Made by a program: the position numbers and the translations under genes
Shown: one piece after another, positions 9,022-49,179 of the stretch
How positions within the stretch are numbered: position 1 is the first letter of the stretch
Layout: each line of letters opens with the position of its first letter
DNA from: an uncultured Thermoplasmata archaeon
Lineage (GTDB): Archaea; Thermoplasmatota; Thermoplasmata; UBA10834
Direction: 5' to 3'
Assembly (NCBI GenBank): GCA_963705355.1
Contig: OY970070.1
Span: forward strand, 91,056-155,055
Length of the DNA: 64,000 bases
Notes under the pieces: model-generated
The model's database searches: none
The model's input: the letters and a program-made list of their open reading frames with translations, nothing else
Told to the model about the DNA's origin: nothing

Positions 9022-9414
9022 CTAGACTCTGCGTCCCCTTCTGCCGCCCTTCTTCTTGGTTCCATCGTGCGGCACAGGTGTGACGTCCTCGATTCTTCCG
9101 ATCCTGAGGCCTGCCCTGGCGAGGGCCCTGATAGCCGCCTGGGCTCCTGGCCCTGGCGAAGCCGATTTATTTCCTCCGGGCGCGCGGACCTGAACATGAA
9201 TGCTGTCGATGCCCTTCTCCTTGGCGATCTCGGCCACCTTCTCAGCCGCCTTCATCGCCGCGTACGGAGAGGCTTCGTCCTTGGCGGCCTTCACGACCAT
9301 GCCCCCGCTGGCCTTCGTGATGGTCTCTGCGCCGGTGACGTCCGTGATAGTGATTATGATGTTGTTATAGCTGGCGAATATGTGCGCTATGCCCCACTTG
9401 CCCATCCAGATCAC
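9022..9414 (-). CDS. rps11: 30S ribosomal protein S11
   Basis: [18 protein letters not shown] and VRAPGG motifs, and conserved operon position. Confidence 0.93.
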
Positions 9415-10118
9415 CTCTTCTCCTCAGGCTCAGTTGGTTCCGGGGGCGTCGCAGCTTCGATGTCCTCCTCCTTCTCCTCCTTGAGCTCGGTTGTGATGAT
9501 CTTCTTCAGCTTGGGCTTGGCGACCTTGATCTCCTCCTTCTCCTCGCGCTCCTTCTTCACCGCTTCCTCTTGAGCCTTCGCCTGGAGTTCTTCCGGCTTC
9601 GGCCTCATCGGGTGGAGGTCATTTGCTATCGGGGATGTCACATAGTACTGGATCTGGTCTTCTTCCCCTCTCTTGACAAGGTAGCCCGGAATCGTGACCT
9701 TGCGAGGACCCACCGCTGCGTGTCCATGTACTATGAACTGTCTCGCCTGCTTGGGCGTGTACGCCAGCCCCTTCCTGAATACCATGGTCTGCAATCTGCG
9801 GGCAAGGATGTTCTCGGTCGTGAGAAGGAGGACGTCGTTCAGAGTGGCCCCCTCCAGAGGAAGCAGTGATAGCCGAGCACATCTCGCCAAGAGCTGATTG
9901 GTCTCTATCTTCGCCTGCGGATCGCCAGTTCTTGTTCTGGCCTGAAGTTCCCTGCTCTGGGCCCTCATTGATCTGACGAGCGATTGCGCGCGCCAAAGCT
10001 CCCTCTTGTTCTTCAATCCGTACTTCATGAGAATATCGTTCTCGGCCTTGATCCGCTCTCCTTCCCACGGGTGGGCTGGAGTTTCATACTTCCTTCGAGA
10101 AAACTTAGGGTCTCCCAT
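9411..10118 (-). CDS. rps4: 30S ribosomal protein S4 with Lys/Glu-rich C-terminal extension
   Basis: Starts [19 protein letters not shown] with an S4 domain, followed by an in-frame KE-rich tail of about 55 aa. Confidence 0.9.
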
Positions 10119-10126
10119 GGGTCACA

Positions 10127-10726
10127 CTACTCCTTCTTTTTCTCGTCCTCGCCCGCAGCTCCGGGCTCGAGCTTCTTTCTGATGACACCCATGGTCATGC
10201 CGGTCCTGCCGTTGGACCTCGTCCTCTGGCCTCTGACCTTCTGACCCTGTTCGTGCCGGATGCCCTTGTAGCATCTGATCATCTTCATCAGGTTGACGTC
10301 GTCTCTCCTGTTGAGCTCAACATCAACTCCTACAAGGTGCATGTCCGCGCCGGTCGACCAATCGCTTTGCCGGTTGACCATCCAGTGGGGGACCTTTTCG
10401 GAATAGTCCATGACGAGCTTCTCGAGCTCGTCGGTCTTCGTCTCCGGCAGGTCTCCGATCTTTGTCTGCCTGGGGATACCCGCCATCCTGGCGATGACCT
10501 CTGCGCTCCTTAATCCGACGCCCTTGATGCCCGAGAGGGCGATGACTATGTTCTTGTTGCCGTCGAGGTCTGTGTTGACGATTCTCACGATGTATCTGAA
10601 GTTCTCATCTCTCTTCTCAACAGGCTTCTTTTCAGCGGGTGGGCCCTTCTCCCCCTTCTTCGTAGCTTTCGCTGCTTCCCTATCCTTGGGCGCACCCTTT
10701 GTTTTGGCCTCTTTCTCCTCGGGCAA
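10127..10726 (-). CDS. rps13: 30S ribosomal protein S13 with Lys-rich N-terminal extension
   Basis: The core FRYIVRIVNTDLDGNK...GIRH..G..VRGQRT is preceded by about 40 aa of K/E/P-rich sequence. No alternative in-frame start was seen. Confidence 0.88.
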   Translation of the reverse strand: MPEEKEAKTKGAPKDREAAKATKKGEKGPPAEKKPVEKRDENFRYIVRIVNTDLDGNKNIVIALSGIKGVGLRSAEVIARMAGIPRQTKIGDLPETKTDELEKLVMDYSEKVPHWMVNRQSDWSTGADMHLVGVDVELNRRDDVNLMKMIRCYKGIRHEQGQKVRGQRTRSNGRTGMTMGVIRKKLEPGAAGEDEKKKE

Positions 10727-19399: not shown

Positions 19400-22595
<3,196 letters not shown>

Positions 22596-31430: not shown

Positions 31431-31515
31431 GCGAGGGTAGCCAAGCTCGGTCAAAGGCGACAGACTCAAGATCTGTTCTCGCAGGAGTCCCCCGGTTCAA
31501 ATCCGGGCCCTCGCA
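31431..31515 (+). tRNA. tRNA-Leu (anticodon CAA)
   Basis: Folded by hand. The acceptor is GCGAGGG/CCCTCGC plus discriminator A, the D arm is GCC/GGC, the anticodon arm is ACAGA-CUCAAGA-UCUGU, the variable arm is long, and the T arm is CCCGG-UUCAAAU-CCGGG. No CCA is encoded. Confidence 0.92.
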
Positions 31516-31564
31516 CATTAGTTACCGGTAACTTATATATAGGCCAGACATATATCTGCGTCTG

Positions 31565-32161
31565 ATGAAAAAAGGCCCGGGAAGACCCAATTTAGGGCGA
31601 AAAAAGACCTTCAAAGACCGTCAGGTCGACCTCTATCTTCCGACCGTAGAAATGGTCAAGCAGTGGAAGGTCGAGGCGGAAAAACACGGGCTCTCACTCT
31701 CCAAGTTTGTCGTGGAAGTCGTCGACGACACCCTCAGGAAGAACCCGAGAGGCGTGACCCCGAGGGAGCAGCTTGAAGATGAATTGAACAAGACCTGGGC
31801 AGAGCTGACGACTCTCTCTATCGAAGTGGATCATCTTAGGGAGGCTCAAAAGAGGAACGAAGCGACTATAGCGGAGTATCGGGAGAAACTCGCGAGGCCT
31901 GCGGTCGTCTCTGAGGAATCCGCTGAATATGTCCCTATTCTAGCTGAGCTAATCCAAGAGGAGAAGGTCCTTCCGATTGAGAGGGCCAAGAAGATGTTCG
32001 GGATCGGAGACGCAGATGTCGATGCTCTTCGCGCGCTAGGCGCCGCCGTGGACGCACTGGCTAGCATGGGGCTCATCGAGAAAGGCATCTCGGATTGGAG
32101 GTGGATACGTGGAAATCGCAGAAAGAGGCAAGCCTCTCCGCGCACACGAGAACCTCGATAA
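31565..32161 (+). CDS. RHH (CopG/Arc-like) DNA-binding protein with coiled-coil; possible excisionase/regulator
   Basis: The beta-alpha-alpha pattern VDLYLPTVEMVKQWKVEAEKHGLSLSKFVVEVV is followed by a heptad-rich segment. It sits just upstream of and overlapping the integrase gene. Confidence 0.5.
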   Translation: MKKGPGRPNLGRKKTFKDRQVDLYLPTVEMVKQWKVEAEKHGLSLSKFVVEVVDDTLRKNPRGVTPREQLEDELNKTWAELTTLSIEVDHLREAQKRNEATIAEYREKLARPAVVSEESAEYVPILAELIQEEKVLPIERAKKMFGIGDADVDALRALGAAVDALASMGLIEKGISDWRWIRGNRRKRQASPRTREPR

Positions 32162-33083
32162 CCACTTCGCCTCCTTCATTGAGGACTGCCGCCTCCGAGG
32201 GATGACCCATTACTCGATTCTTTCGTACGCCTCCGTGCTGCGAAGTTTCAACCGTCATCTCGGCAGCCTTGGCATCCAAGATGCCGCTGACATCGACAAG
32301 AACGCCGTAAGGGACTATGTACGAGTCCTGCGCGAGGATCGCAAGCTGAGTATCTCTACGATCGAGAACCATCTGTCGAGCATCTCTGCGTTCTTCGACT
32401 ACCTGATGTACGAGGACGTGGTCGACTCAAACATAGCGTTGTCTGTTCGCAAGCGGTATGTGAGGAGATACAAGGCTGAGACACCCGGCGAGGGCCACAC
32501 GAGGAAGCTCATCACAGTGGAGCAATTGAAGGCGTTGGTCGAGTCCATCCTCCAGCCGCGCGACAAGGCCATGGTCGTCCTTCTTGCGAAGACAGGCATC
32601 AGGAGGAGCGAGCTCGTCACCATCGACATCAAGGACGTCGACTTCGCCAGCATGAAGATACTCCTCAAGCCTAAGGCGAAGAGGTCGAACCGGGTAGTCT
32701 ACATCGACGAGGAATGCGCGAGTCTCTTGCAGGATTGGCTCATCGTGAGGCAGAGATATGCCAGAAGTGACGTTCCCGCACTGTTCATAACCGAAGCTGG
32801 AGGTAGGGTGGACAGGAACGGGGTCTACAACATCGTGACGAGCCACGCTGCCCGTATGGGTCTGCACGATGCGTCCTCATGCAGGCTGGAGGATCATTTC
32901 TCACCGCACTGCCTCCGCCACTGGTTCACAACCCAGCTTCGGAGGAACGGGATGCCCAGAGAGATGGTCCAAGAGTTGAGAGGGGACATTCGCTCAGATG
33001 CGATTGACATCTATTATCACATCGATGAGGAGCAGCTCAGGAGCGAGTATCTCAGGTGCATCCCGAGACTTGGGACACGGTAG
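32109..33083 (+). CDS. tyrosine recombinase / integrase (XerC/D-like)
   Basis: SAM-like N-domain (FIEDCRLRGMTHYSILSYASVLRSF). Catalytic R (TGIRRSEL), HxxR (HCLRHW) and Y (IDIYYH). GTG start. Confidence 0.88.
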   Translation: MEIAERGKPLRAHENLDNHFASFIEDCRLRGMTHYSILSYASVLRSFNRHLGSLGIQDAADIDKNAVRDYVRVLREDRKLSISTIENHLSSISAFFDYLMYEDVVDSNIALSVRKRYVRRYKAETPGEGHTRKLITVEQLKALVESILQPRDKAMVVLLAKTGIRRSELVTIDIKDVDFASMKILLKPKAKRSNRVVYIDEECASLLQDWLIVRQRYARSDVPALFITEAGGRVDRNGVYNIVTSHAARMGLHDASSCRLEDHFSPHCLRHWFTTQLRRNGMPREMVQELRGDIRSDAIDIYYHIDEEQLRSEYLRCIPRLGTR

Positions 33084-33100
33084 TTCAGAGGGAGCCGTGT

Positions 33101-33152
33101 GTGAACCGAGAAGACTGGCCATTTTTCAATCAGCGGGTTTTAGTACCGAGAT
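33101..33152 (+). repeat. direct repeat, copy 1 (about 52 nt)
   Basis: TGTGAACCGAGAAGACTGGCCATTTTTCAATCAGCGGGTTTTAGTACCGAG is roughly 70% identical to 33207-33257. Confidence 0.6.
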
Positions 33153-33206
33153 AAAAACCTTTCCATTTCTTTCCCTAGTGAAAATCGAGTTCAGAGTCCA
33201 CGCCAT

Positions 33207-33257
33207 GTGAACCCGGATGTGTGGTCATTTCTCAATCATGGGATTATGGCACCGAGC
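33207..33257 (+). repeat. direct repeat, copy 2
   Basis: TGTGAACCCGGATGTGTGGTCATTTCTCAATCATGGGATTATGGCACCGAG. A weaker third copy may lie around 33336-33385. Confidence 0.6.
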
Positions 33258-33577
33258 TAACTCAGTTTCTCTCCTCACTTATAACATCCAATCAAGAATA
33301 GAAGAAGAGACTGCCAAGTATTCAAATGCGGGTTTGTGTGCCGAACCGGAGAACGACGGGAATCACCTCCGTGGAGGGCTTTGATTAAAGGGGCGTCCGA
33401 TGTCTCTAGCCATGTCGGTATTTGTGAAGGAGTCATGATAAGACTGGTGAGCATCGACGGCCTCCGGCAACACTTGATTGCATCACGCGCGTAGTCTTTC
33501 GTAAACGCTCCTAGCTTTACCACTTTCGTTGATCCCAACACCAAGTTTTAACTTCTTAGACCCGATTCCCAGACATC

Positions 33578-34702
33578 ATGCCCAAGGAAAACGACTCAGA
33601 GTCCGAAGGCAAGCTGACTCGAGCGCCGAAGAGCAGACTTGGGAGACGTCCGTCTGAAGTATCGTTTCCTCGTGATACGCTGAAGAGGAGTCTCAAAGTT
33701 GCTGAATCTATTGAGAAGAACAACGCAGGCAAACCCTACAACAGGCTCGATCTCGCCCAATCTGTGTCTCTCTCGCCTAGCAGTTACTCATTTCGAAGTC
33801 TACTGAGGTCGTCGATTCGCCATGGTCTCACAGAAGGCAGCGAGAAGGCTGACAGGATACAGCTGACGGCGTTGGGCACATCTATCGTAAGCCCCGCTGA
33901 GGAAGGGGAAGTTGCGCGGGGGCTTCGAACGGCTTTACTGAAACCACCTCTGTTTAAGAAGATACTTGATTACTACGACAAGAAGAGGATCCCCCCAGAG
34001 GAATTGTTCAAGAACGCCTTGAAGAGGGAGTTTGGTGTCCCTGTCGAAGACGTTGATGTGTGTTTTCAGATTTTGATGCAGAACTTGAAAGATTATGGAC
34101 TGATTCAGAAGATCAAGGACAACGATTACCTGCAACTCGATAGGTTGAGTTCCGCGACTTCAGAGGGTGAAGAGGGAGTTCCTACCGAGGAATCCGAAGA
34201 AGAGAGAGCCGAAGTTCAAGTCAGAACAGAGGAAGAAGTGAGTCCCCCAGCGCCTACTCAGAAACCAAGAGATATTTTCGTAGCACATGGGAGAAACAAG
34301 AAACCGCTTGAGCAGCTCAAGACAATCCTTGCGCAATTCAAAGTACCTTTCAAGGTTGCGATAGATGAACCACACAAAGGTCGGGCAATCAGCGCGAAGG
34401 TCTCTGAATTGATGCGGGCATGCGGGTCCGGCATTTTCATTTTCACAGCAGACGAGGAAGCGACCGATGCTAATGGAAATCGACTGCTGAGGCCGAGCGA
34501 CAATGTGGTTTTCGAGCTTGGAGCAGGCACTGTTCTCTATGGTGACAAGATTGTTATACTCAGAGAGGAGGGTGTCTCCTTCGGCAGCGATTTCACGGAC
34601 TACGGCCACATCACTTTTGAAAAGGACAGACTGGACGCGAAGGCGCTAGACCTCATCAGGGAGCTTATTGGCTTGGGGTTCCTTCAAGTGACACCGACGT
34701 AG
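33578..34702 (+). CDS. protein with a C-terminal TIR-like nucleotide-binding domain (COG4271 / Cap12-Pycsar-effector type) and an unknown N-terminal domain
   Basis: The C-terminal 140 aa read IFVAHGRNKKPLEQLKTILAQF...PHKGRAISAKVSELMRACGSGIFIFTADE...DNVVFELGAG...IVILREEGVSFGSDFTDYGHITF. An acidic linker precedes them, and the N-terminal about 190 aa look wHTH-like. Confidence 0.7.
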   Translation: MPKENDSESEGKLTRAPKSRLGRRPSEVSFPRDTLKRSLKVAESIEKNNAGKPYNRLDLAQSVSLSPSSYSFRSLLRSSIRHGLTEGSEKADRIQLTALGTSIVSPAEEGEVARGLRTALLKPPLFKKILDYYDKKRIPPEELFKNALKREFGVPVEDVDVCFQILMQNLKDYGLIQKIKDNDYLQLDRLSSATSEGEEGVPTEESEEERAEVQVRTEEEVSPPAPTQKPRDIFVAHGRNKKPLEQLKTILAQFKVPFKVAIDEPHKGRAISAKVSELMRACGSGIFIFTADEEATDANGNRLLRPSDNVVFELGAGTVLYGDKIVILREEGVSFGSDFTDYGHITFEKDRLDAKALDLIRELIGLGFLQVTPT

Positions 34703-34829
34703 TCAGCCATTCCTTACCCTGAGTCATGATTGAAGTTGAGACGTCTAGTCAATGCATTTCTCAGGTTCAAGTCCGAGATGGTAAGACTAATACCCGGTCC
34801 ATGTATTCTGGAGTTGGGCAGGTGCAGCG

Positions 34830-35555
34830 GTGTTAAGGAAGAAGGACCGGGAGAGTCTTGCTCCAAAGGTTTTCCTTAGCTATTCCTCTGGAGATGCCAT
34901 GTTGGCGGGTCGTCTGAAGAGGTCCCTCGAGCAATACGGAGTGAGAGCCTTTCTTGCGCACGAAGACATTGTTCCAGGCGAGAAATGGACGAATGAAATC
35001 ATAAGCGAGCTCAAATCGTGCGACATATTTGTCCCGATTCTGACGGCTAAGTCAAAGGTTTCAGTATACGTCAATCAGGAAATTGGTTTCGTGCTTGCTG
35101 GCAAGGCGAGAATCATACCTCTCAAGATAGATGTTGACCCCTTTGGTTTCATGTCAGAGACCCAGGGAATGAAACCCATCAGAACTACAATCCGAACTCG
35201 AGACGGTGTTAGCCAAGAGATAGACTCGAACTCTTCTGCATGGCTGATTGTGGAGAAGATCATGCAGGATCCTCAGCTCAGAGATGCGCTGAAACGCAGT
35301 GTAATTGACGATATGCACAATAGCAGAAGCTTCAAAGAAACCCGCTCTAGGACGCGAGTGCTGGAGTGTTTCAGCGAATTTGGCCAGAGGGAAGTTCGAG
35401 AACTCGCTAGAGCAGCAGCCAGCAATAGGCAGATTTTCGAGGAGGAGTACAAAGGGAAGAAGTTCTTGCAGGTATTCTTCAAGAATCACCGCAGATACCT
35501 AACTGATGACTTGGCATTGAGTCTCACTATGAAGGGTTTCCTCGAGGGGGAGTGA
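34830..35555 (+). CDS. TIR domain protein with an unknown C-terminal helical domain
   Basis: The N-terminus reads KVFLSYSSGDAMLAGRLKRSLEQYGVRAFLAHEDIVPGEKWTNEIISELKSCDIFVPILT...VYVNQEIGF, a canonical TIR_2-type pattern that includes the conserved Glu. Confidence 0.8.
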   Translation: MLRKKDRESLAPKVFLSYSSGDAMLAGRLKRSLEQYGVRAFLAHEDIVPGEKWTNEIISELKSCDIFVPILTAKSKVSVYVNQEIGFVLAGKARIIPLKIDVDPFGFMSETQGMKPIRTTIRTRDGVSQEIDSNSSAWLIVEKIMQDPQLRDALKRSVIDDMHNSRSFKETRSRTRVLECFSEFGQREVRELARAAASNRQIFEEEYKGKKFLQVFFKNHRRYLTDDLALSLTMKGFLEGE

Positions 35556-35769: not shown

Positions 35770-36798
35770 CTAGGCTCCTATTAGACCGTTTCTTTCCAGC
35801 GGTACCTTGTATCGGCTTTTGCCAAGAATCTCCTTGGCATAGGCCTCGTATTCACTGCCTCTCTTCAGCTTTCTTGTCAGATTGACTTCTTGCTGAAACA
35901 CCCAAGCATTGTGTAATGCGCGGAGTCCGAAGCTTCTTCGTAGTCCTTTGAGCCCCTCTCTCCGACATGCCGGACACCTGCAGTTGTCAAGCAACTCCCT
36001 TTCGTGTCTACCAAGCTTCCTTTTGATGGCAGAGCGTTCGTTGGACGTTATGTACCGATCTCCTATCCCTGGGAGTTGAATTGCCCCATAAGCCGCCTTT
36101 GTTCTCCATGCTGAGCTATCAATCGAATCAATACCAATCAAGAACATGAGATGCATTGTAATCGTGCTACCGACGCCAAACGTGTGAAGTCTAGCTTCCG
36201 GCAAACGCTGACGCACATAAGCCAGAATAGAAATCGCCTGAGTAATACCCATGGCACCCTTGAGCTTGAACAATGAAGGAACTAGGCTGCCAATTCCGAC
36301 TAGGTCGAATCTGCCACGGGTTTGAAGTCTCGAAATATACCAGCTAACTGACTCAATCGAATGTCCGTGAATTACTGGAACCATACTGGGGTTGTTGGTG
36401 GTCCTTAGCCTGAGCATTGCAGAAAGGTTCCGTAAACTCACATTCTGTCTGGAACGTTCTTGATATCTGCGAATCCCTGGTCGCAAGGGGTGGTCCAGCG
36501 CAACGCAGTACTCAGGATGACTTGCTTCGTAGAGATCCAGCACTTCCTCGAGGCCGAATCTTGGCTTGCGGTCTCGGAGAATGAGGTATCCACCAGAGTC
36601 CATCATTATTGAGCCTGAGAAACGTAGTGATTTGTGAATGCCATTTGCGGTGACTCGGTCAGTCCATGCCGGCGATTGAAGAATCTCTTGGGCATTGACC
36701 ATCAGGTTCTCAATCCTAAAATGCTCCCATGGCCGCGGACTACCGTCTATGCTGTGTGTGAGCCAGAAGAGAGGACTACGATCTGTCACCAAGTGCAA
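35770..36798 (-). CDS. tRNA-guanine transglycosylase superfamily protein (DpdA / Cap10 / ArcTGT-core-like), no PUA domain
   Basis: MMDSGGYL (catalytic DSGG), VALDHP, and the zinc site CRCPACRRE...LHNAW. It is 342 aa. The start may be the internal Met (MVNAQ), which would remove the 23-nt overlap with the upstream gene. Confidence 0.75.
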   Translation of the reverse strand: MHLVTDRSPLFWLTHSIDGSPRPWEHFRIENLMVNAQEILQSPAWTDRVTANGIHKSLRFSGSIMMDSGGYLILRDRKPRFGLEEVLDLYEASHPEYCVALDHPLRPGIRRYQERSRQNVSLRNLSAMLRLRTTNNPSMVPVIHGHSIESVSWYISRLQTRGRFDLVGIGSLVPSLFKLKGAMGITQAISILAYVRQRLPEARLHTFGVGSTITMHLMFLIGIDSIDSSAWRTKAAYGAIQLPGIGDRYITSNERSAIKRKLGRHERELLDNCRCPACRREGLKGLRRSFGLRALHNAWVFQQEVNLTRKLKRGSEYEAYAKEILGKSRYKVPLERNGLIGA

Positions 36799-37534
36799 CC
36801 TCCAGCGAAGATCTCAAGTGACATTGAGCCACAGGATGAGCAGGCCCATACATGTCCCAAGCAAAGGCGCCCCTGGATGTGACAAGAGATCGAATCTGTG
36901 CTCTATTCGGAACGAATCTGATTGGGACTCCAGAGACATCTGACGCAATCTCTAGAATCCTCCTATGAGTATGATCCCCCTTGAAGGCGAGAGAAGATGA
37001 GCAGTATCGAACGCACGCAATTAGGGTCGCAAAACGCCTTAGGTAATTCCTCTCAAGAAACCTGCCTACTGCCTTCCCGATGATTTCTAGACACTGCCGG
37101 ACAGTATCTGGGTCATAGTCTATTGAATTCCTCTCGCACCACCATTGGAAAAGGCCCGGACAGTCATAGTTCCACTGCGTGTCATCATAGAATTCCTGGG
37201 GTACCAAGCCAAAAGGCTCTGACACTGTGGCCAGGTGGATTTTCCCTTTGCTTCCATTGATTTGATTCAGAGTCTCAAGTAGTATTCTATAGGATCTTGA
37301 CTCCAGGTAGGGTTTTGTCGCCGTACACGGGAACAAAAGCAACACCTCTCTCCTTGGCATAACGTATTTGGATTCGATGAAATCCAGCCAATCCCTTATT
37401 GTTGAATTGTTATTCAGGCCGTCTAATACATCTTCGGGACTACGCAAGACCAGCGCAGTTTCTCTTCTGCGTTCGCTCGCAGAATCAGAGAATGTCAATT
37501 TCGATTTCTCCTTTGTAGAACAAAGATTTCTCAC
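36776..37534 (-). CDS. stand-alone DUF5591 (ArcS C1-domain-like) protein
   Basis: It contains LLLFPCTATKPYLESRSY. This is the ArcS signature PC-x3-KPY-x2-S-x2-H with the final His replaced by Tyr. Confidence 0.65.
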   Translation of the reverse strand: MRNLCSTKEKSKLTFSDSASERRRETALVLRSPEDVLDGLNNNSTIRDWLDFIESKYVMPRREVLLLFPCTATKPYLESRSYRILLETLNQINGSKGKIHLATVSEPFGLVPQEFYDDTQWNYDCPGLFQWWCERNSIDYDPDTVRQCLEIIGKAVGRFLERNYLRRFATLIACVRYCSSSLAFKGDHTHRRILEIASDVSGVPIRFVPNRAQIRSLVTSRGAFAWDMYGPAHPVAQCHLRSSLEVALGDRS

Positions 37535-37549: not shown

Positions 37550-40500
37550 TCATGGAATCAGGGCCACGCCCCCCTTAAGGAATCTCTTCTTTATCAGCCC
37601 TCTGAATACGCTGTCAACCTGGTCAGGGGACAGTGCAAGTTTTTTCTCCAGCTCTGAGTGCAAGTCTGAGAGTGGCAACCATCTGTTGCTGTCTTCTTTC
37701 AGGTGACCAAGTACTATTCCGAGAACGGAGGCCTCATCCTTGGTCAAGACTGGTGCAACAAGCGAATACATCAGTCTACGCGACCTCTGCATTGACGGGT
37801 CGTATTTCGATATCGGAGACCGCAATTCAAGCGGTTTGGTTCTTGAAAGGACCTTATCCAGACTCTCAAGTTCTTTCTCCAGAGCATCGCCAGATGCTAG
37901 AGTTTGTCTTTTTCGAGTTAGTGATACGAGGCGCCGAATGCTGGCTACAAATTCATCGATTTCAGATCGATAGTCAGTCCAAATCTCATTGACTCTCCCA
38001 GAAATAGCTTTCAGGTCCTGCTCGAGGACCGGGAGCTCTTTTTCGAAGATCCGAAGCACTTCCAGGATCTCTTTCGGGTCTTCCGACACTATCTTCGTTT
38101 TCAGCCCATCGTACTCTTCCTGGCGAGCGTCCAGACGTTCTCGCAGAGATAAGGTACCACTTTTCCACGGCTCGACGTCGAGTATTTCCTCCGCCCATTT
38201 GACTGACTCGCCCGCCTGGGCAAGCGCCGCAGAAAGGGAATTCTCGAAGCCATTTATGGTACTCAAATGGACAACGCATGAATGATAACCATCGAGGCCA
38301 GTCAGAATCTTGCCAGTTACGTTTTCGCAATACCTTTTCACATCCTGCAATCCGATTTTTCTTCGTTTTTCCAGCTGAATTCCTGCATATACGTCGAGGC
38401 TCTTGAGTCTCTTCAGGACCTCTGAAGTTAGAAGTGGATAGGGGGGATTGCCAATCGCATCGGCTTTTTCTCGAATTCGCTTGACCGAGTCATCGAGCCT
38501 TCGAAGATTCTCCTCGGCCAGGGTCAGTACCTTAAGATAGTTCACCAGCTTCGATTGCACATCTTCATTGATTTCGACGATCCTTTTTGTCTTGAGATTG
38601 AATCCAAAGGATTCATCATCGCTCTTGTTGAAGAGGAAGCATGATAATTCGCTCTCTTTGAGCCCTTTCTCGAGCTTCCGTAGATTCTGCAAGTCACTGT
38701 ATCCATGGTGAATGGACACTGCGCGGTCCTTCAACCCCGAAATCTCAACGAACTCATCAACATTCTCTGGCTCAACCTCAATCTTGAACCATCGTCTAAG
38801 GTTCGAGCACAGATTCGTGAGTCTCTCCTCGAAATCGCTCACACTTTTCTCAATGCTGAGGATGTTGTCCTCAGCAATCTTTACGGCTCCCCTAACATGC
38901 GGCAGAATTTCATCAAGCATATGCCTTGAGAGGCTGAGTGCCAAAGATGCTTTTTGACGGGTTAGAAGGTCGTCCGTTGTCGAGTCTGGGCTCCTGACAG
39001 GAGCCGATAGAGAGATCGCAATATCAAGTGCCTCCTTCGGCATAATCAGCCTTGATTCGCGCTCCTTGCGCACGAAAACATGACAATAGCCCCCGAGGCG
39101 CTTTGAATCGATTTGCCTTCTGAGCTCTTCCAAGGAAGTCTCCGCTTCTCTAGCGAGTTCGGTCTTGTCCCTGAGCGCAAAGAGTGTGTTTTTCTCATGC
39201 ACTACGCCTTCGTATTCAAGGAGATTCAGGTACACATTGCGAAGCAGTTTCCGAGAACGAGAAGCGAGGATGAAATGCTCCTCCAGCTGATTCTCCGGCA
39301 TTCCTTTCGTACTGCCAAGTATCTCGATGATCCTTTTTTCGATCGGATGCTGTAAAACATAAAGCGCCCCACTCTTGGGTCTGTATGCGAGGAATCCTGC
39401 TTCGACAAGATCTTCCGTCATGCTCTTGAACTTCTCCAGTCCTGAAATGTCTGGTATCAATCCCAGCCTCGAACTGTAGAACACAAACTTCAGCAATTCA
39501 TCCCGATTCCTTGCTAGTGCGGTGTCGGGGGTAGCATCCGACCCTCTAAGGTTGAGATAGAATTTCAGTGAATCAGCTAGTTCTCTTGGTGGGAATTGTG
39601 TCCTTAAGTCGTCAATCACCTTTCCTCCCATGGCTTGTCTTTTGAGCCAAGTCTCAACCTTCTGAGGAATGGTTAGTTCCTTGTTGACGAGATTCTCAAT
39701 CGCACTATTGTACAATTGCGATTCGATGCACTCCTTGTAGGACCTGCAAAGAACAGAGTCAATAATCACCCGCTTTGCGATAGCTGGATGAATCCGGATA
39801 TAGAGCGTTGAGTCCGAGCCCGCCTCTCCAAGTTCTTTTGCTTTTCTACAACTGGCAGCCTCTTTGCTCATCTCCCCAGAGTATAAGACAATCGCCAGAT
39901 GTAGGATTGGAGATGATCCCTTAGCTAGTTCATAGAGTCTGTCGACGTGGCCGGCCTCAAGGTCTCCATTCGCCGAATAGAATAATGTGACAATTCGAGC
40001 TCCGCCAGAAAAACTCAACAATGTAAGGACAAAGTCCGGCCCCTTTCTTAGCACCGACACTTCATTGTCGTCAATCATTCCAATCAAATCCACAACTGCA
40101 TTTGGCATATTCTCGTTGTAGAGATCAGAAAGATTTCTGTTGACTTCCCTCCATAGCTTGGCCCTGGTCTCTCGATTGTGGATATACTCTAGACCGGTCG
40201 GTACTGGAGTTGGAAAAACTCGCTGAAGAAGCTGTTCACTTGCTAGCACTTCCGACGGTCCTTCGGAGCACCTTCTTTCAACTATCTTGGCAAATTCAAT
40301 GGCATCTTCGGGTGCAATTCCTTCAAAAATGGCCAATGCAGAATCAAGATCGGCTGGCACGCATACCCTTGACTTTAGAATGCGGTCTTCTCCATAATCG
40401 TACCATGTTAGTCTATCTTCAACCGCGGCAAGCGGCTCCTCGTAGTTACCCATCTTCAATATCGAACGGTCCTCCTCTTTTGCAACAAACTTGGACAGGG

Positions 40501-41794
40501 CCTGCACAAGGTCAGTGAAGTTCAGGCCTTCCTTCAGCGCCTTGACCTTCAATACTGCGTGTTGGATTCCTTCTTCGCGTCTCAGCCTTTCGTTGATGAG
40601 GCCAATTGAACTCTTGAAATCACCATCAGACAAATGGATGCATGTCCTAACGTTTTCTTGGCTTATCGGCCCGAGGCTCCCTAGTAGAAGTCTCAGGAGG
40701 ATCAATGGCCCCTTCTCAGAGCCAGAATGACCCACTATTCTGAAGAGTCTGTCAAGGGTCTCGGGCTCCAAGCACCTCGTCTGGCCACCGTATACGAATA
40801 CGCGTTCCGACTGAAGGAATTCTAGAAGGGCCGTATGGTCTGCAATTCGCATTTCCTCTTGGGAGACACGCAGAGACTGAAAGAAATGAGCAAACAAGCT
40901 GACCATGACACCAGGGTTGCTTTGGCCAACTCGCGCAAGTGAGCTGAAAATCCCGGCGCTCTCAACAGGAAGAAAGTCCAACTTGCCTTCATAGCTGTAG
41001 CGCATAAGTTCATCCAGGAATCTTGCTGCCTCTCCCTTGCTAATCTGGGTTATCTCGATTTGGCCAACTCTGCGACCCAGCCCTCCAAAGATCAGGCTCG
41101 TGTCTCCGTCTGCCTGTAGTCTGAAGAATGCATCTGGAGTGCATGAAAGCATGAAATGGACTCTGCCTTGGAATTCCCCAGATTCATGAAGCAACGACTC
41201 AGGGCTGAGACTCTTCTTCGATTCCGATGGGATTTGTGGTGGATTAAGGATCTCTTTGAGGCCCGATATCACCTCACTAAGTCTCACTCTTCCAAGCAGT
41301 TCCTCGAACTCATCAATGAAGAAAATAAGGCGTGAGTCCCCCTGACATACGGCCTTGAGGCAATCACGGACGAACTGGAAAGAGTCAGAGTATCCATTTA
41401 CGGAAGGAAAAGGGAGCTCAGGGCTTGTTGACTTGGTAGCCGAGAACAGTGCCACCAGGAACCGTAAGGAGGATAAGGAAGTGTTGGAGATCGCTTCTTT
41501 TGCTTGGGGACTGTCATACGTGTTCGCCAGAGTCGAAGATGAGACGAAAAAGGCCTTGTGATTGTATCTCTTGCACCATGGGGCAATGTGCCTACGGTAT
41601 GCGTCTGTCTTTCCTTCTCCCCATTCTCCAAGCAAAACCCTCATTGAAGGGGCTCTCATCTTAGTGCACGACTCGAGCCAGTTCTCTATTTTCTTACCTA
41701 CAATCTCGCGAGAAGGTATTCTCGTGGTTTCGAATCCTTCGAAGGTCACACCAGCCTCGTTAGGCAATCGTTTCGGCGGTCTCATCGTATTCAT
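37550..41794 (-). CDS. 1414-aa P-loop NTPase (BrxC/PglY-, DUF2791- or KAP-like N-terminal ATPase) with a long helical/wHTH-like C-terminal region
   Basis: Walker A is LLGEWGEGKTDA (about 41606-41629) and Walker B is LIFFIDEFEELLG. The remaining about 1100 aa are helical with no recognisable catalytic motif. The ATG overlaps the HerA-like stop (ATGA at 41791-41794). Confidence 0.6.
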   Translation of the reverse strand: MNTMRPPKRLPNEAGVTFEGFETTRIPSREIVGKKIENWLESCTKMRAPSMRVLLGEWGEGKTDAYRRHIAPWCKRYNHKAFFVSSSTLANTYDSPQAKEAISNTSLSSLRFLVALFSATKSTSPELPFPSVNGYSDSFQFVRDCLKAVCQGDSRLIFFIDEFEELLGRVRLSEVISGLKEILNPPQIPSESKKSLSPESLLHESGEFQGRVHFMLSCTPDAFFRLQADGDTSLIFGGLGRRVGQIEITQISKGEAARFLDELMRYSYEGKLDFLPVESAGIFSSLARVGQSNPGVMVSLFAHFFQSLRVSQEEMRIADHTALLEFLQSERVFVYGGQTRCLEPETLDRLFRIVGHSGSEKGPLILLRLLLGSLGPISQENVRTCIHLSDGDFKSSIGLINERLRREEGIQHAVLKVKALKEGLNFTDLVQALSKFVAKEEDRSILKMGNYEEPLAAVEDRLTWYDYGEDRILKSRVCVPADLDSALAIFEGIAPEDAIEFAKIVERRCSEGPSEVLASEQLLQRVFPTPVPTGLEYIHNRETRAKLWREVNRNLSDLYNENMPNAVVDLIGMIDDNEVSVLRKGPDFVLTLLSFSGGARIVTLFYSANGDLEAGHVDRLYELAKGSSPILHLAIVLYSGEMSKEAASCRKAKELGEAGSDSTLYIRIHPAIAKRVIIDSVLCRSYKECIESQLYNSAIENLVNKELTIPQKVETWLKRQAMGGKVIDDLRTQFPPRELADSLKFYLNLRGSDATPDTALARNRDELLKFVFYSSRLGLIPDISGLEKFKSMTEDLVEAGFLAYRPKSGALYVLQHPIEKRIIEILGSTKGMPENQLEEHFILASRSRKLLRNVYLNLLEYEGVVHEKNTLFALRDKTELAREAETSLEELRRQIDSKRLGGYCHVFVRKERESRLIMPKEALDIAISLSAPVRSPDSTTDDLLTRQKASLALSLSRHMLDEILPHVRGAVKIAEDNILSIEKSVSDFEERLTNLCSNLRRWFKIEVEPENVDEFVEISGLKDRAVSIHHGYSDLQNLRKLEKGLKESELSCFLFNKSDDESFGFNLKTKRIVEINEDVQSKLVNYLKVLTLAEENLRRLDDSVKRIREKADAIGNPPYPLLTSEVLKRLKSLDVYAGIQLEKRRKIGLQDVKRYCENVTGKILTGLDGYHSCVVHLSTINGFENSLSAALAQAGESVKWAEEILDVEPWKSGTLSLRERLDARQEEYDGLKTKIVSEDPKEILEVLRIFEKELPVLEQDLKAISGRVNEIWTDYRSEIDEFVASIRRLVSLTRKRQTLASGDALEKELESLDKVLSRTKPLELRSPISKYDPSMQRSRRLMYSLVAPVLTKDEASVLGIVLGHLKEDSNRWLPLSDLHSELEKKLALSPDQVDSVFRGLIKKRFLKGGVALIP

Positions 41795-45482: not shown

Positions 45483-45949
45483 TGATGTCGCCCCCGTACG
45501 AATGCGACTGCCAACGAACGTGGCCGGTATCAGTCTCTGCCTATAAGTCGGTCCCGACTGGATTCGCTCTCATGACAGGACTGCACTCCAGTAAGATCAT
45601 AAATGCTCGTCTGATTGAGATATAGTCCGAACCAAAACGAGAAACCATTTCGAGCGAAAGGATCAGTCTAAACAGCATATGCACTCTCTGCGGCTCCTCC
45701 CCAATCCACACATGGAGAGATTCAGGAAGACCTTGATCTACAATCTAGGTCAATCACACTTTCTCGAGACCGTCTGATTAATGGTCCAACTGGAGAGCGA
45801 CGGGCGCTTCTGGAACAAATGGAGTAGGATACGCATGGCAGAGTGCATTCAATGGGATGCAAACCTGCTTTCGGTTTGTACTCTCCTTGAGTCGTAACGA
45901 CGAATTGCTCATGTTCAAACTGGCATCTCAGCCGCGTATGCACGGGCGT

Positions 45950-46291
45950 GTATACGCAACTACACATCGTATACTCCGTAGACACGTACAATGTAGACGC
46001 GTTTTCACAGCGTATACACTGAGGATGCTGGAGGTAGACACATTCTCTTCTGTCAAGACTTGAAGAACTAGTCCGCAGCTTAGGCTTCTACCCCGTACAG
46101 TTTACGGCTAGTTTACGGCACCGCGTCATGAGATCCGAGTTATGTGATTTTGGTTCGAGCGGTTCCAGGCAAAGGAAATCAGGGACCCATAGCACGCATC
46201 CGTAAACAGGCGTATACGCAGGTTTACACGGAGATACTGATAGTCTACAATACCGGTCAAGATTCATCGTGTCTACATGAGAGCGTCTACA
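45950..46291. repeat. iteron-like repeat cluster in an ORF-poor 1.1-kb region
   Basis: GTAGAC(A/G)C occurs three times forward (45979, 45994, 46035) and GTCTAC three times inverted (46243, 46271, 46285). There is a tandem AGTTTACGGC pair (46099-46108, 46110-46119) plus an inverted copy at 46200-46207. GTATAC cores lie at 45950, 45969, 46012 and 46212, the last within the perfect palindrome GCGTATACGC at 46210-46219. Confidence 0.75.
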
Positions 46292-46581
46292 AGCTAGCAA
46301 TGTAAGTCACAAGACACGGATGGGAACTCTCTCGAACCCATGTATGATTCACGATCTGGAGAGGGCGGTTCACGGTCCAGGCACTCGAACCGATCTGTGC
46401 AGGTCACGTGGCGTGCAAATAGATAAAGCATTATGAAATTATATATCTCAGATGTGGGATATTTATCATGCCAGCATCACAAGAACGCTTTTCTCTCACC
46501 TGAGCAGCCTAGATAATCCATGCTTGTTATCGACCTCTTATCGGCAGTACCTTATATCTTGTAACGCCCCAAAGAATCCTC

Positions 46582-46833
46582 ATGAAGATCGTAATAAAAG
46601 TAGATGGAAAAGAGCTAGACGATGAACTGCTGCACGAGACCGAAGTGGTCAGCGCAAGGCTTCCCGACGTGCTCGTTTGCTGGGCGCGCGAGGCGATAGA
46701 AAACGAATTGAATGGTGATCGCACCATGACCGAGTTCATCACCTCAGCCGTCGTGTATTGGCTCCTCACCAATGAGCTGATCGGATTCGAGGGCTACGAT
46801 GAGGAATCGGATACGATGACCATATCGGTGTAA
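46582..46833 (+). CDS. small acidic hypothetical protein
   Basis: 83-aa ORF following the iteron region. No motif recognised. Confidence 0.35.
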   Translation: MKIVIKVDGKELDDELLHETEVVSARLPDVLVCWAREAIENELNGDRTMTEFITSAVVYWLLTNELIGFEGYDEESDTMTISV

Positions 46834-46867
46834 CAACGTACTCGGACAACCATGCGGTACGGGAGGC

Positions 46868-46905
46868 GAGGAGTAGCTACGGTGTTCAAATCTAATCCCG
46901 AATCT
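46868..46905 (+). other. decayed copy of the tRNA-Leu(CAA) variable-arm/T-arm (candidate attR)
   Basis: GCGAGGAGTAGCTACGGTGTTCAAATCTAATCCCGAATCTCG compares with the tRNA 3' part GCAGGAGTCCCCCGGTTCAAATCCGGGCCCTCGCA in the same orientation. AGGAGT and CGGT(G)TTCAAATC are shared. Confidence 0.45.
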
Positions 46906-46933
46906 CGTGTTCTTCAGGCCCACCACAGTTCCG

Positions 46934-46978
46934 TCGCCAATCATGAGCCGGGGTTCACGGGCTAGATTCAGTTTCTAG
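46934..46978 (+). other. fragment resembling the 5' half (D arm + anticodon arm) of a tRNA-Leu(CAG)
   Basis: GCCAA-tcatga-GCCGGGGTTCACGGGCTAGATTCAGTTTCTAG compares with the 49.2-kb gene GCCAAGCCTGGTCAACGGCGCTAGATTCAGGGTCTAG. The block GCTAGATTCAG..TCTAG is identical. Confidence 0.5.
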
Positions 46979-47536
46979 AAGAATGCGCTTTTCCCATTAG
47001 CAGATCGTCATGTAGTTACACCGCTTGCATTTCCAGGGAGCAGGATTCGGAGAGAAGTCCTCCTTTTTGTTGATCTGAAGCATCTCACAGCAGGGAGCAG
47101 CCTGTACTTGCCTGTGAATGTGGACGGGGGGCTCCTTTTCCTGGGAGATCCCCACGTGGCACAGGGAGACGGCGAGGTGTTCTCAAGCGCGATAGAAGCG
47201 CCTCTCTCGGCAACGGTAAGATTGTCGGTCAGAGAAGATTTAGACCATCTGGATCCTCTGGCCTATGTCGTCAGGAAACCGAGAGTGCACGACGCCTACA
47301 GCAAGGGCTACATGGGATTCGTGGGAGTGGCAAAGACGATCGATGAGGCCACGGATATCGCCTGCATGAAGGCTCTGGGCTATTTTTGCAGCAAGCCCGA
47401 CATGACGCCTCAGAAGACGGCGATTCTACTCGGCGTCGCCCTAGACCTGACGATAAACGAGATTCCAGACAAGCCAAACAAGGTCGTCAGCGGGATCGTC
47501 CCCCTATCCATATTCAAAGGACTCAGATTACCGTAG
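46979..47536 (+). pseudogene. 5'-truncated acetamidase/formamidase-family gene (C-terminal about 40% only)
   Basis: VDLKHLTAGSSLYLPVNVDGGLLFLGDPHVAQGDGEV matches the family core (D.K.L..GS.LYLPV.V.GA..S.GD.HA.QGDGE). The frame is closed by a TAG at 46976-46978 inside the tRNA-like fragment, and the N-terminal half is absent. Confidence 0.7.
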
Positions 47537-47724: not shown

Positions 47725-48930
47725 TTGAAAGCGAGAGACTATATCAAACTGGAACAGACGTATGGCGCGCACAACTACCACCCACTACCAGTCGTGATAT
47801 CGAAGGCGAAGGGCGTGTGGGTCTGGGACGTCGACGGGAAGAAATACATCGACATGCTGAGCTCGTATTCGGCAATCAACCAGGGGCATCTACACCCTAA
47901 GATCGTCAAGGCCGCGATCACCCAGATGAGGAGAGTCACACTGACATCAAGAGCTTTCTCCAACGACAAGATGGGGCCTTTCATGAAGAAGCTGTGCAGG
48001 GTCGCTGGAATGGAAATGGCGCTCCCCATGAACACGGGGGCTGAAGCTGTCGAGACATCGATCAAGATGGCCAGAAGATGGGCACATCAGACCATGGACA
48101 TACCCGAGAATGAAGGAGAGATAATCGTCTGTGAGAACAACTTCCATGGCAGGACGACCACAATCATCAGCTTCTCGAGCGATCCCGATTCCAAGAAGGG
48201 GTTCGGCCCTTACACCCCTGGATTCGTGACAATCCCCTATGATGACATACCGGCGTTCGAGAAAGCCATTGGCCCGAACACAATTGGCATGCTCGTCGAG
48301 CCCATTCAAGGCGAAGCTGGCATAAACGTACCCGCCAAGGGTTACCTGAAGGGGCTGAGAAGGATATGCGACGAGAAGGGCATACTGCTTATTCTTGATG
48401 AAATTCAGACGGGATTCGGCAGGACAGGTAAGATGTTCGCGTTCCAGCACGAGGGCATAAAACCGGACATCCTGTGCGTCGGCAAAGCCCTCGGCGGCGG
48501 CCTGTACCCGGTATCTGCCTCGCTCTCGAGCAGGAAGATAATGAGCGTCTTCACCCCTGGCAGTCATGGCAGTACCTTTGGCGGAAATCCGCTGGCGGCT
48601 GCCATCGGCATTGCCTCGTTGGACGTGCTGGTTGACGAGAAGTTGTCCAGCAATGCGAAGAAGATGGGCGGATATTTCGTCAAGAGCCTCAAGCAGATCA
48701 AGTCTGACAGGATCAAGGTGATCCGGGACATGGGGCTGCTCATAGGCGTCGAATTCCACCTCGGGAAGGACGAAACCGTTCGCCCCATTTGCGAGAGTCT
48801 CATGAAGAAAGGTGTTCTGGCGAAGGACACACACGAGAAGACGATTAGGTTTGCCCCGCCTTTGGTCATCACGAAGAAAGAGATCGACTGGGCGATGGAA
48901 AGGATAACTGAGGTCTTCGAGAGCGTATGA
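47725..48930 (+). CDS. rocD: ornithine aminotransferase (class III PLP aminotransferase)
   Basis: YGAHNYHPLPVVISKAKGVWVWDVDGKKYIDMLSSYSAINQGH, DEIQTGFGRTG and the PLP Lys in CVGKALGGG. TTG start. Confidence 0.88.
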   Translation: MKARDYIKLEQTYGAHNYHPLPVVISKAKGVWVWDVDGKKYIDMLSSYSAINQGHLHPKIVKAAITQMRRVTLTSRAFSNDKMGPFMKKLCRVAGMEMALPMNTGAEAVETSIKMARRWAHQTMDIPENEGEIIVCENNFHGRTTTIISFSSDPDSKKGFGPYTPGFVTIPYDDIPAFEKAIGPNTIGMLVEPIQGEAGINVPAKGYLKGLRRICDEKGILLILDEIQTGFGRTGKMFAFQHEGIKPDILCVGKALGGGLYPVSASLSSRKIMSVFTPGSHGSTFGGNPLAAAIGIASLDVLVDEKLSSNAKKMGGYFVKSLKQIKSDRIKVIRDMGLLIGVEFHLGKDETVRPICESLMKKGVLAKDTHEKTIRFAPPLVITKKEIDWAMERITEVFESV

Positions 48931-49179
48931 AGGAGGCAGGAAGCCTCTGCCTTGAACGCTCTGGACATAATGGGCCATTCTGGCGAGAATGGGAAAACGG
49001 GGCAGGTTCGTGAAGGGCTGCAATGCCCTCCTTTCTGCCATCCTTTGTTCGTCACGCGAGTCATACTGACGGACGAACATCCAATTAAGCCCGCTCCATT
49101 CCCGTCCCATGTCAATCACGGTCTATGTCGGGACAAGCAAAAGGTGACTCGGCGTCCTCGAAGCGACTGCGAAGCGAAA

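Follow-up and report, generated by a model that had tools for sequence, protein, structure and literature searches.

The 64,000-nucleotide stretch analysed here (the window; positions 91,056 to 155,055 of contig OY970070.1 from an uncultured Thermoplasmata archaeon) carries an island-borne system of five genes, encoding a NurA-like nuclease, a HerA translocase, a giant P-loop ATPase of 1414 amino acids, an enzyme resembling the catalytic core of ArcS (DUF5591 here, DUF6884 in some homologous loci) and a TGT-superfamily transglycosylase; in the window, a QueC-like gene is added to them. The giant protein, whose gene is the signature of the system, is very probably the dedicated ATPase subunit of this HerA-NurA-TGT system. 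The cluster most likely represents a modification-linked, HerA-based, DNA-targeting defence with giant ATPases of a new ORC/Cdc6-clade family at its centre. To the fuller picture, in which the giant, driven by ATP, senses DNA for HerA-NurA or acts as their loader or scaffold within a 7-deazaguanine restriction-modification-like defence, we give even chances.

The operon is read from the minus strand in the order QueC-like, NurA-like, HerA, giant, DUF5591 and, as the last gene, TGT-like (Table 1). A gap of 148 nucleotides separates the QueC-like from the NurA-like gene and a gap of 4 nucleotides separates the latter from HerA; the HerA and giant genes share a 4-nucleotide ATGA overlap, DUF5591 follows the giant after 15 nucleotides, and the DUF5591 and TGT-like genes overlap by 23 nucleotides. 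The giant open reading frame (ORF) starts with ATG and contains no interruption; its location on the minus strand had not been given in the first-pass annotation. The first-pass annotation, made from the sequence alone, had noticed a giant P-loop protein lying between HerA and the modification genes and proposed a scaffold or sensor role for it; this location was confirmed, and such a role is still the most reasonable reading. Full-length homologues in 110 other clusters, as well as 288 representatives recovered by an exhaustive scan (see below), demonstrate that the ORF is not a product of chance.

The giant family comprises 111 clusters, that is, the window protein and 110 homologues, all of them labelled hypothetical; nearly all members are full-length proteins of 1390-1438 amino acids. 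The exhaustive hidden Markov model scan, in which a giant-family profile of amino acids 1-872 was run against 1.84 billion representative proteins, returned 288 matches at E<=1e-3 and 253 at E<=1e-10, and among the 150 matches listed the profile was covered end to end by full-length proteins. Since the whole scan yielded only 288 representatives, the family is rare and sharply bounded, and does not grade into other AAA+ families. Among archaea, homologues were found in Thermoproteota, Methanomethylicia, Bathyarchaeia, Korarchaeia, Thermoplasmata, Methanothermobacter, Archaeoglobales, Aenigmatarchaeota, Asgard and Nitrososphaeria, and among bacteria in a few metagenome-assembled genomes (MAGs) of Bacillota, Chloroflexota, Bacteroidota and Poribacteria. 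Methanothermobacter sp. MT-2 (locus L002) is one carrier of the system. The occurrence in many archaeal and several bacterial phyla implies horizontal transfer of the gene. A search for a viral origin revealed no relative of the giant among 2.9 million viral contigs.

No significant match to a named family was obtained for the giant protein in Pfam, NCBIfam, PADLOC or PHROGs, and searches of PDB sequences with phmmer and with profiles of the full-length protein and of its N-terminal 872 amino acids produced coiled-coil noise or nothing, in agreement with the early statement that sequence did not lead to a named family. The sole library match was nSTAND_NTPase5 (E 0.007, under the family cut-off). 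When 33 family members were scanned against Pfam and the 25 families with the most member matches were considered, 24 of the 33 matched nSTAND_NTPase5, all below its 34-bit cut-off and at amino acids ~20-100 only, and 14 showed weak, sub-threshold matches to AAA_22; the weak AAA_22/nSTAND matches of homologues lie at amino acids 25-180 and coincide with the AAA+ module described below. Neither a STAND-type repeat sensor nor a STAND-type effector domain was seen in the giant. Kinship with the KAP or DUF2791/BrxD ATPases, which had been suggested at first, did not hold: KAP (PF07693) and DUF2791 are absent from the Pfam matches of the window protein at E<=0.1 and from the 25 most-matched families of the 33 members, and the structural neighbours of the protein are ORC/Cdc6-clade AAA+ ATPases and not KAP proteins.

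Two AlphaFold2 monomer models were built on 104-sequence alignments, one for amino acids 1-890 (pLDDT 90.4, pTM 0.79) and one for amino acids 871-1414 (pLDDT 92.1, pTM 0.77). Conservation is high along amino acids 1-870 and low along amino acids 870-1350, where the length of the region is still constant. The earlier estimate that only the first ~200 amino acids can be assigned is correct for sequence searches but does not apply to the predicted structure, in which fold types were recognised over almost the whole chain. Both nucleotide-binding motifs named from the sequence, Walker A GEWGEGKT and Walker B FFIDEFEE, were confirmed with invariant core residues; the residues invariant in the 104-sequence alignment include R29, W58, G59, G61, K62, D161, E162, E164, T219, P220, R242 and N293. 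Behind a conserved N-terminal extension, the AAA+ core contains a sensor-1 (T219/P220) and a GGLGRR motif, whose R242 is likely to be the arginine finger, and the lid bears a QxNPG motif with the invariant N293. A first winged helix follows in the position of the ORC/Cdc6 winged helix, where homologues demonstrate weak matches to HTH_Mga and HTH_36 (amino acids 360-400).

The next segment, beta-rich and then helical (amino acids 414-573), carries conserved FPTPxP and KLWR motifs, an invariant P528 and a W548 that is nearly invariant (fully so in smaller alignments). It leads to an alpha/beta domain with the element order alpha-beta-beta-beta-alpha-beta, for which we tentatively propose a restriction-endonuclease (REase)-like fold on the basis of the model. 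The only conserved motifs of this domain are NGD (609-611) and YTGE (638-641). An active nuclease inside the giant was rejected, as the expected strands bear no conserved D...(D/E)xK, and therefore the domain is probably non-catalytic. Foldseek matches to MspJI (E 3e-3) were obtained for the giant at a position that the output does not report, and NA-iREase1 was weakly matched in two of the 33 members. Further helices and two winged helices contain the conserved motifs PDIE, NGFL, HPVEKRIL and LEYKG (amino acids 670-875), and they are followed by the least conserved part of the protein, a bundle of long helices, and by a terminal winged helix-turn-helix (wHTH), at which homologues weakly match WHD_MCM8, HTH_IclR, MarR_2, DnaD_N and Rio2_N (amino acids ~1340-1404). 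The C-terminus reads LSPDQVDSVFRGLIKKRFLKGG, as had been noted, followed by VALIP. Altogether, the models contain at least four predicted winged-helix modules, which agrees with the early description of a largely helical remainder with wHTH and coiled parts. No catalytic effector domain was recognisable in either the sequence or the predicted structure, again as initially noted.

Foldseek comparison of the models with the PDB, which had been suggested as a check, placed ORC/Cdc6 and BrxC structures among the neighbours of the N-terminal module. The best matches were Cdc6 7jgr_G (E 3.5e-6) and Pyrobaculum aerophilum Cdc6 1fnn (E 7e-6), followed by PAB2304 (E 1.7e-5), ORC2 1w5t, Orc1 2qby, MuB 8xvb and TnsC 8fcu, whereas the BrxC structures 9zdx_C and 9zll_B, which date from 2026, aligned over the greatest length (546-563 columns), at E-values of 3-5e-4. 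For the C-terminal 544 amino acids no neighbour was found at E<0.09. The AAA+ core, Walker motifs, sensor-1, arginine motif, lid, winged helix and closest structures all accord with assignment of the predicted N-terminal module to the ORC/Cdc6 clade. Similar to ORC/Cdc6, MuB and TnsC, which are the best structural neighbours of amino acids 1-410 and share the Walker motifs, sensor-1 and arginine motif, the giant is proposed to assemble on duplex DNA in an ATP-dependent manner and to recruit or load another machine there. It differs from them in having ~1000 more residues and Pfam matches that stay below cut-offs, and the machine it serves would be HerA-NurA, in place of MCM or a transposase.

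The resemblance to BrxC/PglY, also suggested in the first-pass annotation, was upheld for fold and domain order and not for sequence. In BrxC, an ORC/Cdc6 AAA+ module is followed by a wHTH, an alpha+beta domain of ~200 amino acids, one to three wHTHs and a coiled coil of 250-500 amino acids (PMC12839542), and the same order was found by DSSP in both giant models, plus the additional terminal wHTH. Both groups of proteins have ~1200-1400 amino acids and no effector domain, and both are encoded within a multi-gene self/non-self system. Moreover, the BRC variants, which consist of PglZ, DUF6079, STAND, DUF4007, HerA, GNAT and TGT (PMC12839542), also recruit HerA and TGT to a BrxC-like ATPase. The giant might accordingly be a highly divergent true BrxC/PglY of the DUF499/DUF6079 type within a cluster related to bacteriophage exclusion (BREX), for example BRC, and act as a scaffold without nucleolytic capture; the shared domain order, the largest aligned lengths in Foldseek and the composition of BRC speak for this possibility, which we nevertheless consider very unlikely. 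None of the BrxC models (Pfam PF25796, PF25791, PF27153, PF25792 and PF19557, NCBIfam, PADLOC BrxC/PglY) matches the window protein, and the Pfam models are found neither among the 25 most-matched families of the 33 members nor in the Pfam annotations available in precomputed form for the 111 clusters; in genuine BrxC proteins all five dedicated Pfam models are present. BLASTP of the giant and hhalign of the giant-family profile against Escherichia coli HS BrxC gave nothing (hhalign probability 0.18%), hhalign of the same profile against a 16-sequence BrxC profile gave a probability of 0.23% with E 0.27, and the N-terminal profile matched no PDB sequence, BrxC 9zdx included. Cdc6/ORC structures obtain better Foldseek E-values than BrxC. 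PglZ, PglX/BrxX, BrxA and BrxB were not found in the window operon, the gene-called homologous loci or the phmmer/Pfam locus scans, and DUF4007, STAND and GNAT genes were likewise missing from every examined locus; instead of PglZ, PglX, BrxA, BrxB and BrxL, the partners of the giant are NurA, HerA, the ArcS-like enzyme and TGT. NurA is universal in the giant loci, whereas the BRC description does not mention it, and the ~288 representatives of the giant compare with many thousands for BrxC. As every sequence-based test of membership in BrxC/DUF499 failed, this membership was rejected, and the giant is filed as a separate ORC/Cdc6-clade family that we describe as working like BrxC and, according to the models, as built like it.

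The partner proteins encoded in the operon look active, judging by their motifs. In HerA, the Walker A, Walker B and arginine-finger motifs are intact. The NurA-like protein retains the GxDGS, ETKA and FIDGP motifs, and 11 of its 12 examined orthologues match PF09376 (best E 9.6e-13); a sequence profile found no PDB match for this protein, and the assignment rests on Pfam. The DUF5591 protein contains PC-x3-KPY-x2-S, the core motif of ArcS. The TGT is a bare catalytic TIM-barrel that, as in DpdA, lacks tRNA-binding and PUA domains, and it conserves the DSGG and GxDxxD aspartates and the CxCxxC...H zinc site. Its closest PDB sequence is the catalytic domain of Pyrococcus horikoshii arcTGT (1iq8, E 1e-12), followed by DpdA 7ui4 (E 4e-3); with DpdA models it scores below cut-offs (PADLOC 5e-14; NF041059 52.9 bits vs 200) and it is closer to arcTGT. 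The QueC-like protein has an SGGxDS motif and a Cys-rich zinc motif, reaches 73.5 bits with TIGR00364, under the curated cut-off of 150, and also matches the QatC and CBASS QueC models; its gene was found in only two examined loci, the window and L030 (3-689).

In every locus of the core clade, NurA-HerA directly precede the giant, and TGT accompanies them in each of the 20 loci whose flanks are long enough. The TGT gene occupies one of two positions: either downstream of the giant, in the order giant-DUF5591-TGT, or first, in the order TGT-NurA-HerA-giant, the latter in Methanothermobacter, Bacillota, Chloroflexota and Bacteroidota. With the exception of L023, all scanned loci that seemed to lack DUF5591 have beside the giant a gene for 160-190 amino acids, which is either a short DUF5591 or a DUF6884. 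DUF6884 (160-170 amino acids) takes the place of DUF5591 in the TGT-first loci L001 (12213-12710), L016 (14180-14683), L028 (11522-12034) and L015 (14178-14657). In an alignment, its CSKTK sequence falls on the PC-x3-K motif of ArcS type, the Cys and Lys being invariant, which suggests that DUF6884 is a distant relative of the ArcS core acting on 7-deazaguanines. In L023, neither DUF5591 nor DUF6884 was found, and an AbiEii-like ATPase and a PIN gene (8884-10576) lie between the giant and a reverse-strand TGT. The first-pass annotation had regarded a full-length match to a characterised family outside QueC/TGT contexts as fatal to its reading; no such match was obtained, and the core clade is always linked to TGT, with QueC confined to the two loci named above.

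The HerA stop codon overlaps or abuts the giant start in all five gene-called loci. Co-evolution, which had been proposed as a check with HerA, was assessed by correlating pairwise-distance matrices over 17 systems. The correlation is 0.925 for giant-HerA, 0.90 for giant-NurA and 0.89 for HerA-NurA, and it falls to 0.37-0.49 for TGT against any of the three (giant-TGT 0.49). Therefore the giant is part of a co-evolving trio, to which the modification module is more loosely attached. This pattern bears on the possibility that the giant serves modification only, as a DpdB-like ATP-dependent helper and sequence-recognition subunit for TGT, with HerA-NurA restricting independently. BrxC is needed for BREX methylation, no ParB-like DpdB is encoded in the operon, and the many winged helices could confer site specificity, all of which would suit such a role. 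It is disfavoured because the giant co-evolves with HerA and NurA and not with TGT; in addition, the giant is translationally coupled to HerA, distant relatives retain HerA-NurA in the absence of TGT, and in TGT-first loci NurA and HerA stand between TGT and the giant. We regard a function in modification only as unlikely.

The operon is located in a stretch of low GC content (~0.49 vs ~0.57), whose left edge is marked by tRNA-Leu(CAA), with a tyrosine integrase ~600 nucleotides downstream of it. A direct repeat of the tRNA-Leu 3' end (att) was not found downstream, so the right border, at ~45.5-47.1 kb, could be placed only from GC content and the kinds of genes present; from ~47.7 kb on, the genes are those of ordinary metabolism and transport. 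The ~1.6 kb between QueC and the first metabolic genes (45483-47107) contain ORFs of no more than 89 amino acids and no Rfam match at gathering thresholds, and may hold the right island border or a degraded element. Between the integrase and the operon, on the strand opposite to the operon, lie two TIR genes: the first product carries a CAP12/Pycsar-type TIR at its C-terminus and is matched by the PADLOC candidate system PDC-S35 (E 2e-16), the second is TIR_2/ThsB-like, and the pair probably forms a defence module of its own within the island. Near homologous systems, a McrBC-like pair (AAA_5 with DUF2357/PDDEXK_7) was observed in L001 (1017-3735), a Piwi/pAgo gene and an HsdM fragment in L004 (1-362 and 998-1192), and an MNT/HepT toxin-antitoxin pair in L003 (17138-17835).

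Table 1. Features of the giant-ATPase operon and its island. Positions are those of the window; amino acids (aa) are numbered along the giant protein.
Feature	Position	aa	Strand	Evidence and remarks
Island context	31431..35555		plus	tRNA-Leu(CAA) 31431-31516; tyrosine integrase 32109-33083; CAP12-type TIR 33578-34702; TIR_2 34830-35555
TGT-superfamily transglycosylase, 342 aa	35770..36798		minus	PF01702 E 7e-16; PADLOC DpdA E 5e-14; NCBIfam arcTGT E 2e-18
Stand-alone DUF5591, ArcS catalytic-core-like 'ArcS2' type	36776..37534		minus	PF17884 E 1e-13; NCBIfam ArcS; PDB AF0587
Giant ORF, signature gene of the system	37550..41794	1-1414	minus	Predicted ORC/Cdc6-clade AAA+ with BrxC-like multidomain organisation; translation, family, AlphaFold, Foldseek
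C-terminal wHTH	37565..37741	1352-1410	minus	DSSP
Long-helix bundle, ~470 aa	37757..39166	877-1346	minus	Helices of 48-62 residues; least conserved part
Helices (670-770) and two winged helices (786-875)	39170..39787	670-875	minus	DSSP
Alpha/beta domain, REase-like topology (tentative)	39794..40063	578-667	minus	Preceded by helix 555-573
Beta-rich segment (414-480) and helical linker (483-573)	40076..40555	414-573	minus	DSSP
First winged helix, in ORC/Cdc6 winged-helix position	40565..40837	~320-410	minus	DSSP; Foldseek alignments to full-length Cdc6/ORC chains
AAA+ core (27-250) and helical lid (253-307)	40874..41716	27-307	minus	DSSP, invariant columns, Foldseek
Walker B FFIDEFEE	41300..41323	158-165	minus	D161, E162, E164 invariant
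Walker A GEWGEGKT	41606..41629	56-63	minus	W58, G59, G61, K62 invariant
Conserved N-terminal extension		1-25		Strongly conserved
HerA-type hexameric DNA translocase, 562 aa	41791..43479		minus	PF01935 E 4e-22; PADLOC HerA E 7e-32
NurA-like nuclease, 371 aa	43484..44599		minus	PF09376 E 1.2e-3; motifs
QueC-like accessory gene, 244 aa	44748..45482		minus	PF06508 E 3e-26; PADLOC QueC and QatC; 148 nt upstream of NurA

Elsewhere in the window, a complete archaeal 23S rRNA gene on the minus strand (19409-22593) contains a group I catalytic intron (20423-20625; RF00028, 61 bits); the presence of this rRNA shows the host to be an archaeon. A 390-amino-acid ORF on the minus strand (47947-49119) runs antisense to a class-III aminotransferase gene (47725-48930, Pfam E 1e-129) and can almost certainly be dismissed as a shadow ORF, the aminotransferase gene being GC-rich.

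From these data we infer a function in defence, DNA as the substrate of TGT, the likely nature of the modified base, a contact between the giant and HerA, and a loader or sensor role for the giant. In the proposed mechanism, TGT would swap guanine in host DNA for preQ0, and the ArcS-like partner would turn preQ0 into an archaeosine-type derivative, by which self DNA would be marked. The giant ATPase would oligomerise on DNA in an ATP-dependent manner, and its winged-helix and alpha/beta domains would read the DNA and perhaps its modification state. On unmarked DNA, it would recruit or load the HerA hexamer together with NurA, comparable to the matchmaking performed by ORC/Cdc6, MuB and TnsC, and HerA-NurA would processively degrade the DNA of the invader. 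The giant may additionally assist TGT, because DpdA needs the ATPase DpdB for preQ0 insertion into DNA (PMC10164549). It should be noted that phage DpdA2 and stand-alone ArcS2 make dG+ (archaeosine) in DNA (PMC10516641), and that 'capture' systems combining HerA with an Orc/Cdc6 ATPase have been described, in which the AAA+ protein is proposed to localise the apparatus on DNA and HerA to pump the DNA towards a nuclease (PMC10853773).

Several observations weigh against the DNA-marking defence outlined above. The co-evolution of TGT with the giant, HerA and NurA is loose, as the correlations given above demonstrate. In the giant, no reader domain for modified bases could be recognised with certainty. 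The locus is present only in (Illumina-type) metagenome contigs, according to a search of public runs. The completion of archaeosine by canonical ArcS depends on a radical-SAM partner, and there is no radical-SAM gene in the operon, so the final base is uncertain. Finally, TGT- and QueC-family enzymes of other defence systems modify proteins and not DNA (PMC11996544), which provides a precedent for a different scheme, where TGT, the ArcS-like enzyme and QueC conjugate or process a 7-deazaguanine on protein or RNA, perhaps on the giant or HerA (cf. Cap9/Cap10 of type IV CBASS, and QatBC), and the giant acts in an abortive or nuclease response, either as its regulated substrate or as its sensor. 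The match of the QueC-like protein to the QatC and CBASS QueC models at a score under the curated cut-off for QueC, the strong conservation of the first 25 residues of the giant, and the ability of some relatives of the trio to function in the absence of TGT are consistent with a target of this kind. We find it improbable, as the TGT is nearest to the arcTGT catalytic domain and DpdA, with the aspartates and the zinc site kept, and matches the CBASS TGT model at E 0.026 compared with 5e-14 for DpdA; moreover, QueC occurs in two loci only, and ArcS-core enzymes have a documented role on preQ0 in nucleic acid.

A further difficulty for a defence based on DNA marking comes from distant relatives of the giant in Ignicoccus, Pyrodictiaceae and Desulfurococcales, a clade of proteins with ~1400-1480 amino acids and 22-28% identity, some of which match PF00004 AAA. 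Solo giant-like genes were identified in L033 (9971-14158; Ignicoccus pacificus DSM 13166) and L039 (9968-14407; a Pyrodictiaceae MAG), where the neighbours are housekeeping genes (a TrmI-like methyltransferase, a RimK-like ATP-grasp protein, an amino-acid kinase and MatE), whereas in L036, L038 and L042 the giant-like gene is located beside divergently oriented HerA-NurA with no TGT. The absence of TGT from this clade indicates that the ATPase can work without the modification module, perhaps outside defence. HerA-NurA is the archaeal end-resection machine, and the ORC-like ATPase could target this resection in DNA repair, recombination or mobile-element maintenance; the solo genes of Ignicoccus and Pyrodictiaceae and the absence of any viral or defence-specific domain from the giant would fit such a function. 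Against it stand the sporadic, horizontally transferred distribution of a rare family across archaeal and bacterial phyla, the position of the window copy in an integrase-bearing, low-GC island by TIR genes, and the McrBC-like, pAgo and toxin-antitoxin neighbours at other loci, while the obligatory link to a TGT that lacks tRNA-binding domains is hard to square with repair. A non-defence function consequently appears very improbable to us, and defence, as proposed above, is the reading that we retain.

Among known systems, the HerA/FtsK capture systems (Krishnan lab, NAR 2024, PMC10853773) and DndFGH likewise combine a HerA-type translocase with an Orc/Cdc6-clade AAA+ protein, which in the capture systems carries wHTH domains and an REase-like insert that is probably inactive; the tentatively REase-like domain of the giant may be a counterpart of this insert. 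In our operon, HerA adjoins the giant, immediately upstream and translationally coupled, and the ATPase is of the Orc/Cdc6 class with wHTH domains. The nuclease of the capture systems is a PD-(D/E)xK REase, whereas no separate active REase gene was found in our operon and its nuclease is NurA. Furthermore, the giant is far larger and has a ~470-amino-acid helical bundle, and the TGT and ArcS-like module is obligatory here; neither NurA nor TGT is mentioned in the paper on capture systems (PMC10853773). Similar to the Dpd system (DpdA-K) and the phage DpdA/ArcS2 modules, our system includes a TGT-family enzyme without tRNA-binding domains that is predicted to insert preQ0 into DNA; further shared features are an ArcS2-type DUF5591 able to convert dPreQ0 to dG+, the dependence of the transglycosylase on an ATPase, which is proposed here, and a tRNA-Leu-linked genomic island. 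It differs from Dpd in that the restriction half would consist of HerA-NurA and the giant ATPase, and no equivalents of DpdB (ParB-like), DpdC (DUF328) or the DpdD-K helicases and restriction genes were found in the operon with Pfam, PADLOC and NCBIfam. SIR2-HerA and DUF4297-HerA also couple a defence-type HerA hexamer to an effector of the same operon, and the anti-phage HerA models of PADLOC and NCBIfam match the HerA of our operon; these systems, however, have two genes with NADase or nuclease effectors, no giant AAA+ protein and no TGT module.

We found no description of the NurA-HerA-giant-DUF5591-TGT cluster or of the giant family in the open-access full-text literature, and as this coverage is open-access only, the novelty of the cluster is provisional. 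The closest published systems are BRC (PMC12839542) and the HerA/FtsK capture class (PMC10853773), and neither description mentions NurA or presents the architecture of the giant. As a tentative and rather doubtful extension, we envisage an archaea-centred immunity in which an archaeosine-type 7-deazaguanine would be placed in cellular chromosomal DNA and the giant would be a modification-sensitive loader of HerA-NurA on unmarked duplex DNA, possibly without free ends; the BrxC-like architecture would then be the product of a separate lineage, in which it either arose or became unrecognisably divergent, and immunity would have reused the loading logic of replicative helicases.

If the proposed function is true, the system would be a new member of the small set of 7-deazaguanine-based defences and would provide a first case in cellular archaea of 7-deazaguanine marking of DNA, which has until now been described from bacteria (Dpd), phages and archaeal viruses. 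The archaeal HerA-NurA, otherwise a repair machine, would gain an immune paralogue with a defined targeting subunit, and a context would be assigned to DUF6884 and stand-alone DUF5591, which are families of unknown function. For BrxC, whose mechanism of action in BREX is still unclear, the giant would also represent an independent counterpart that is structurally tractable, and the combination of the same domain plan with a well-understood translocase-nuclease could reveal what giant ORC-like ATPases do.

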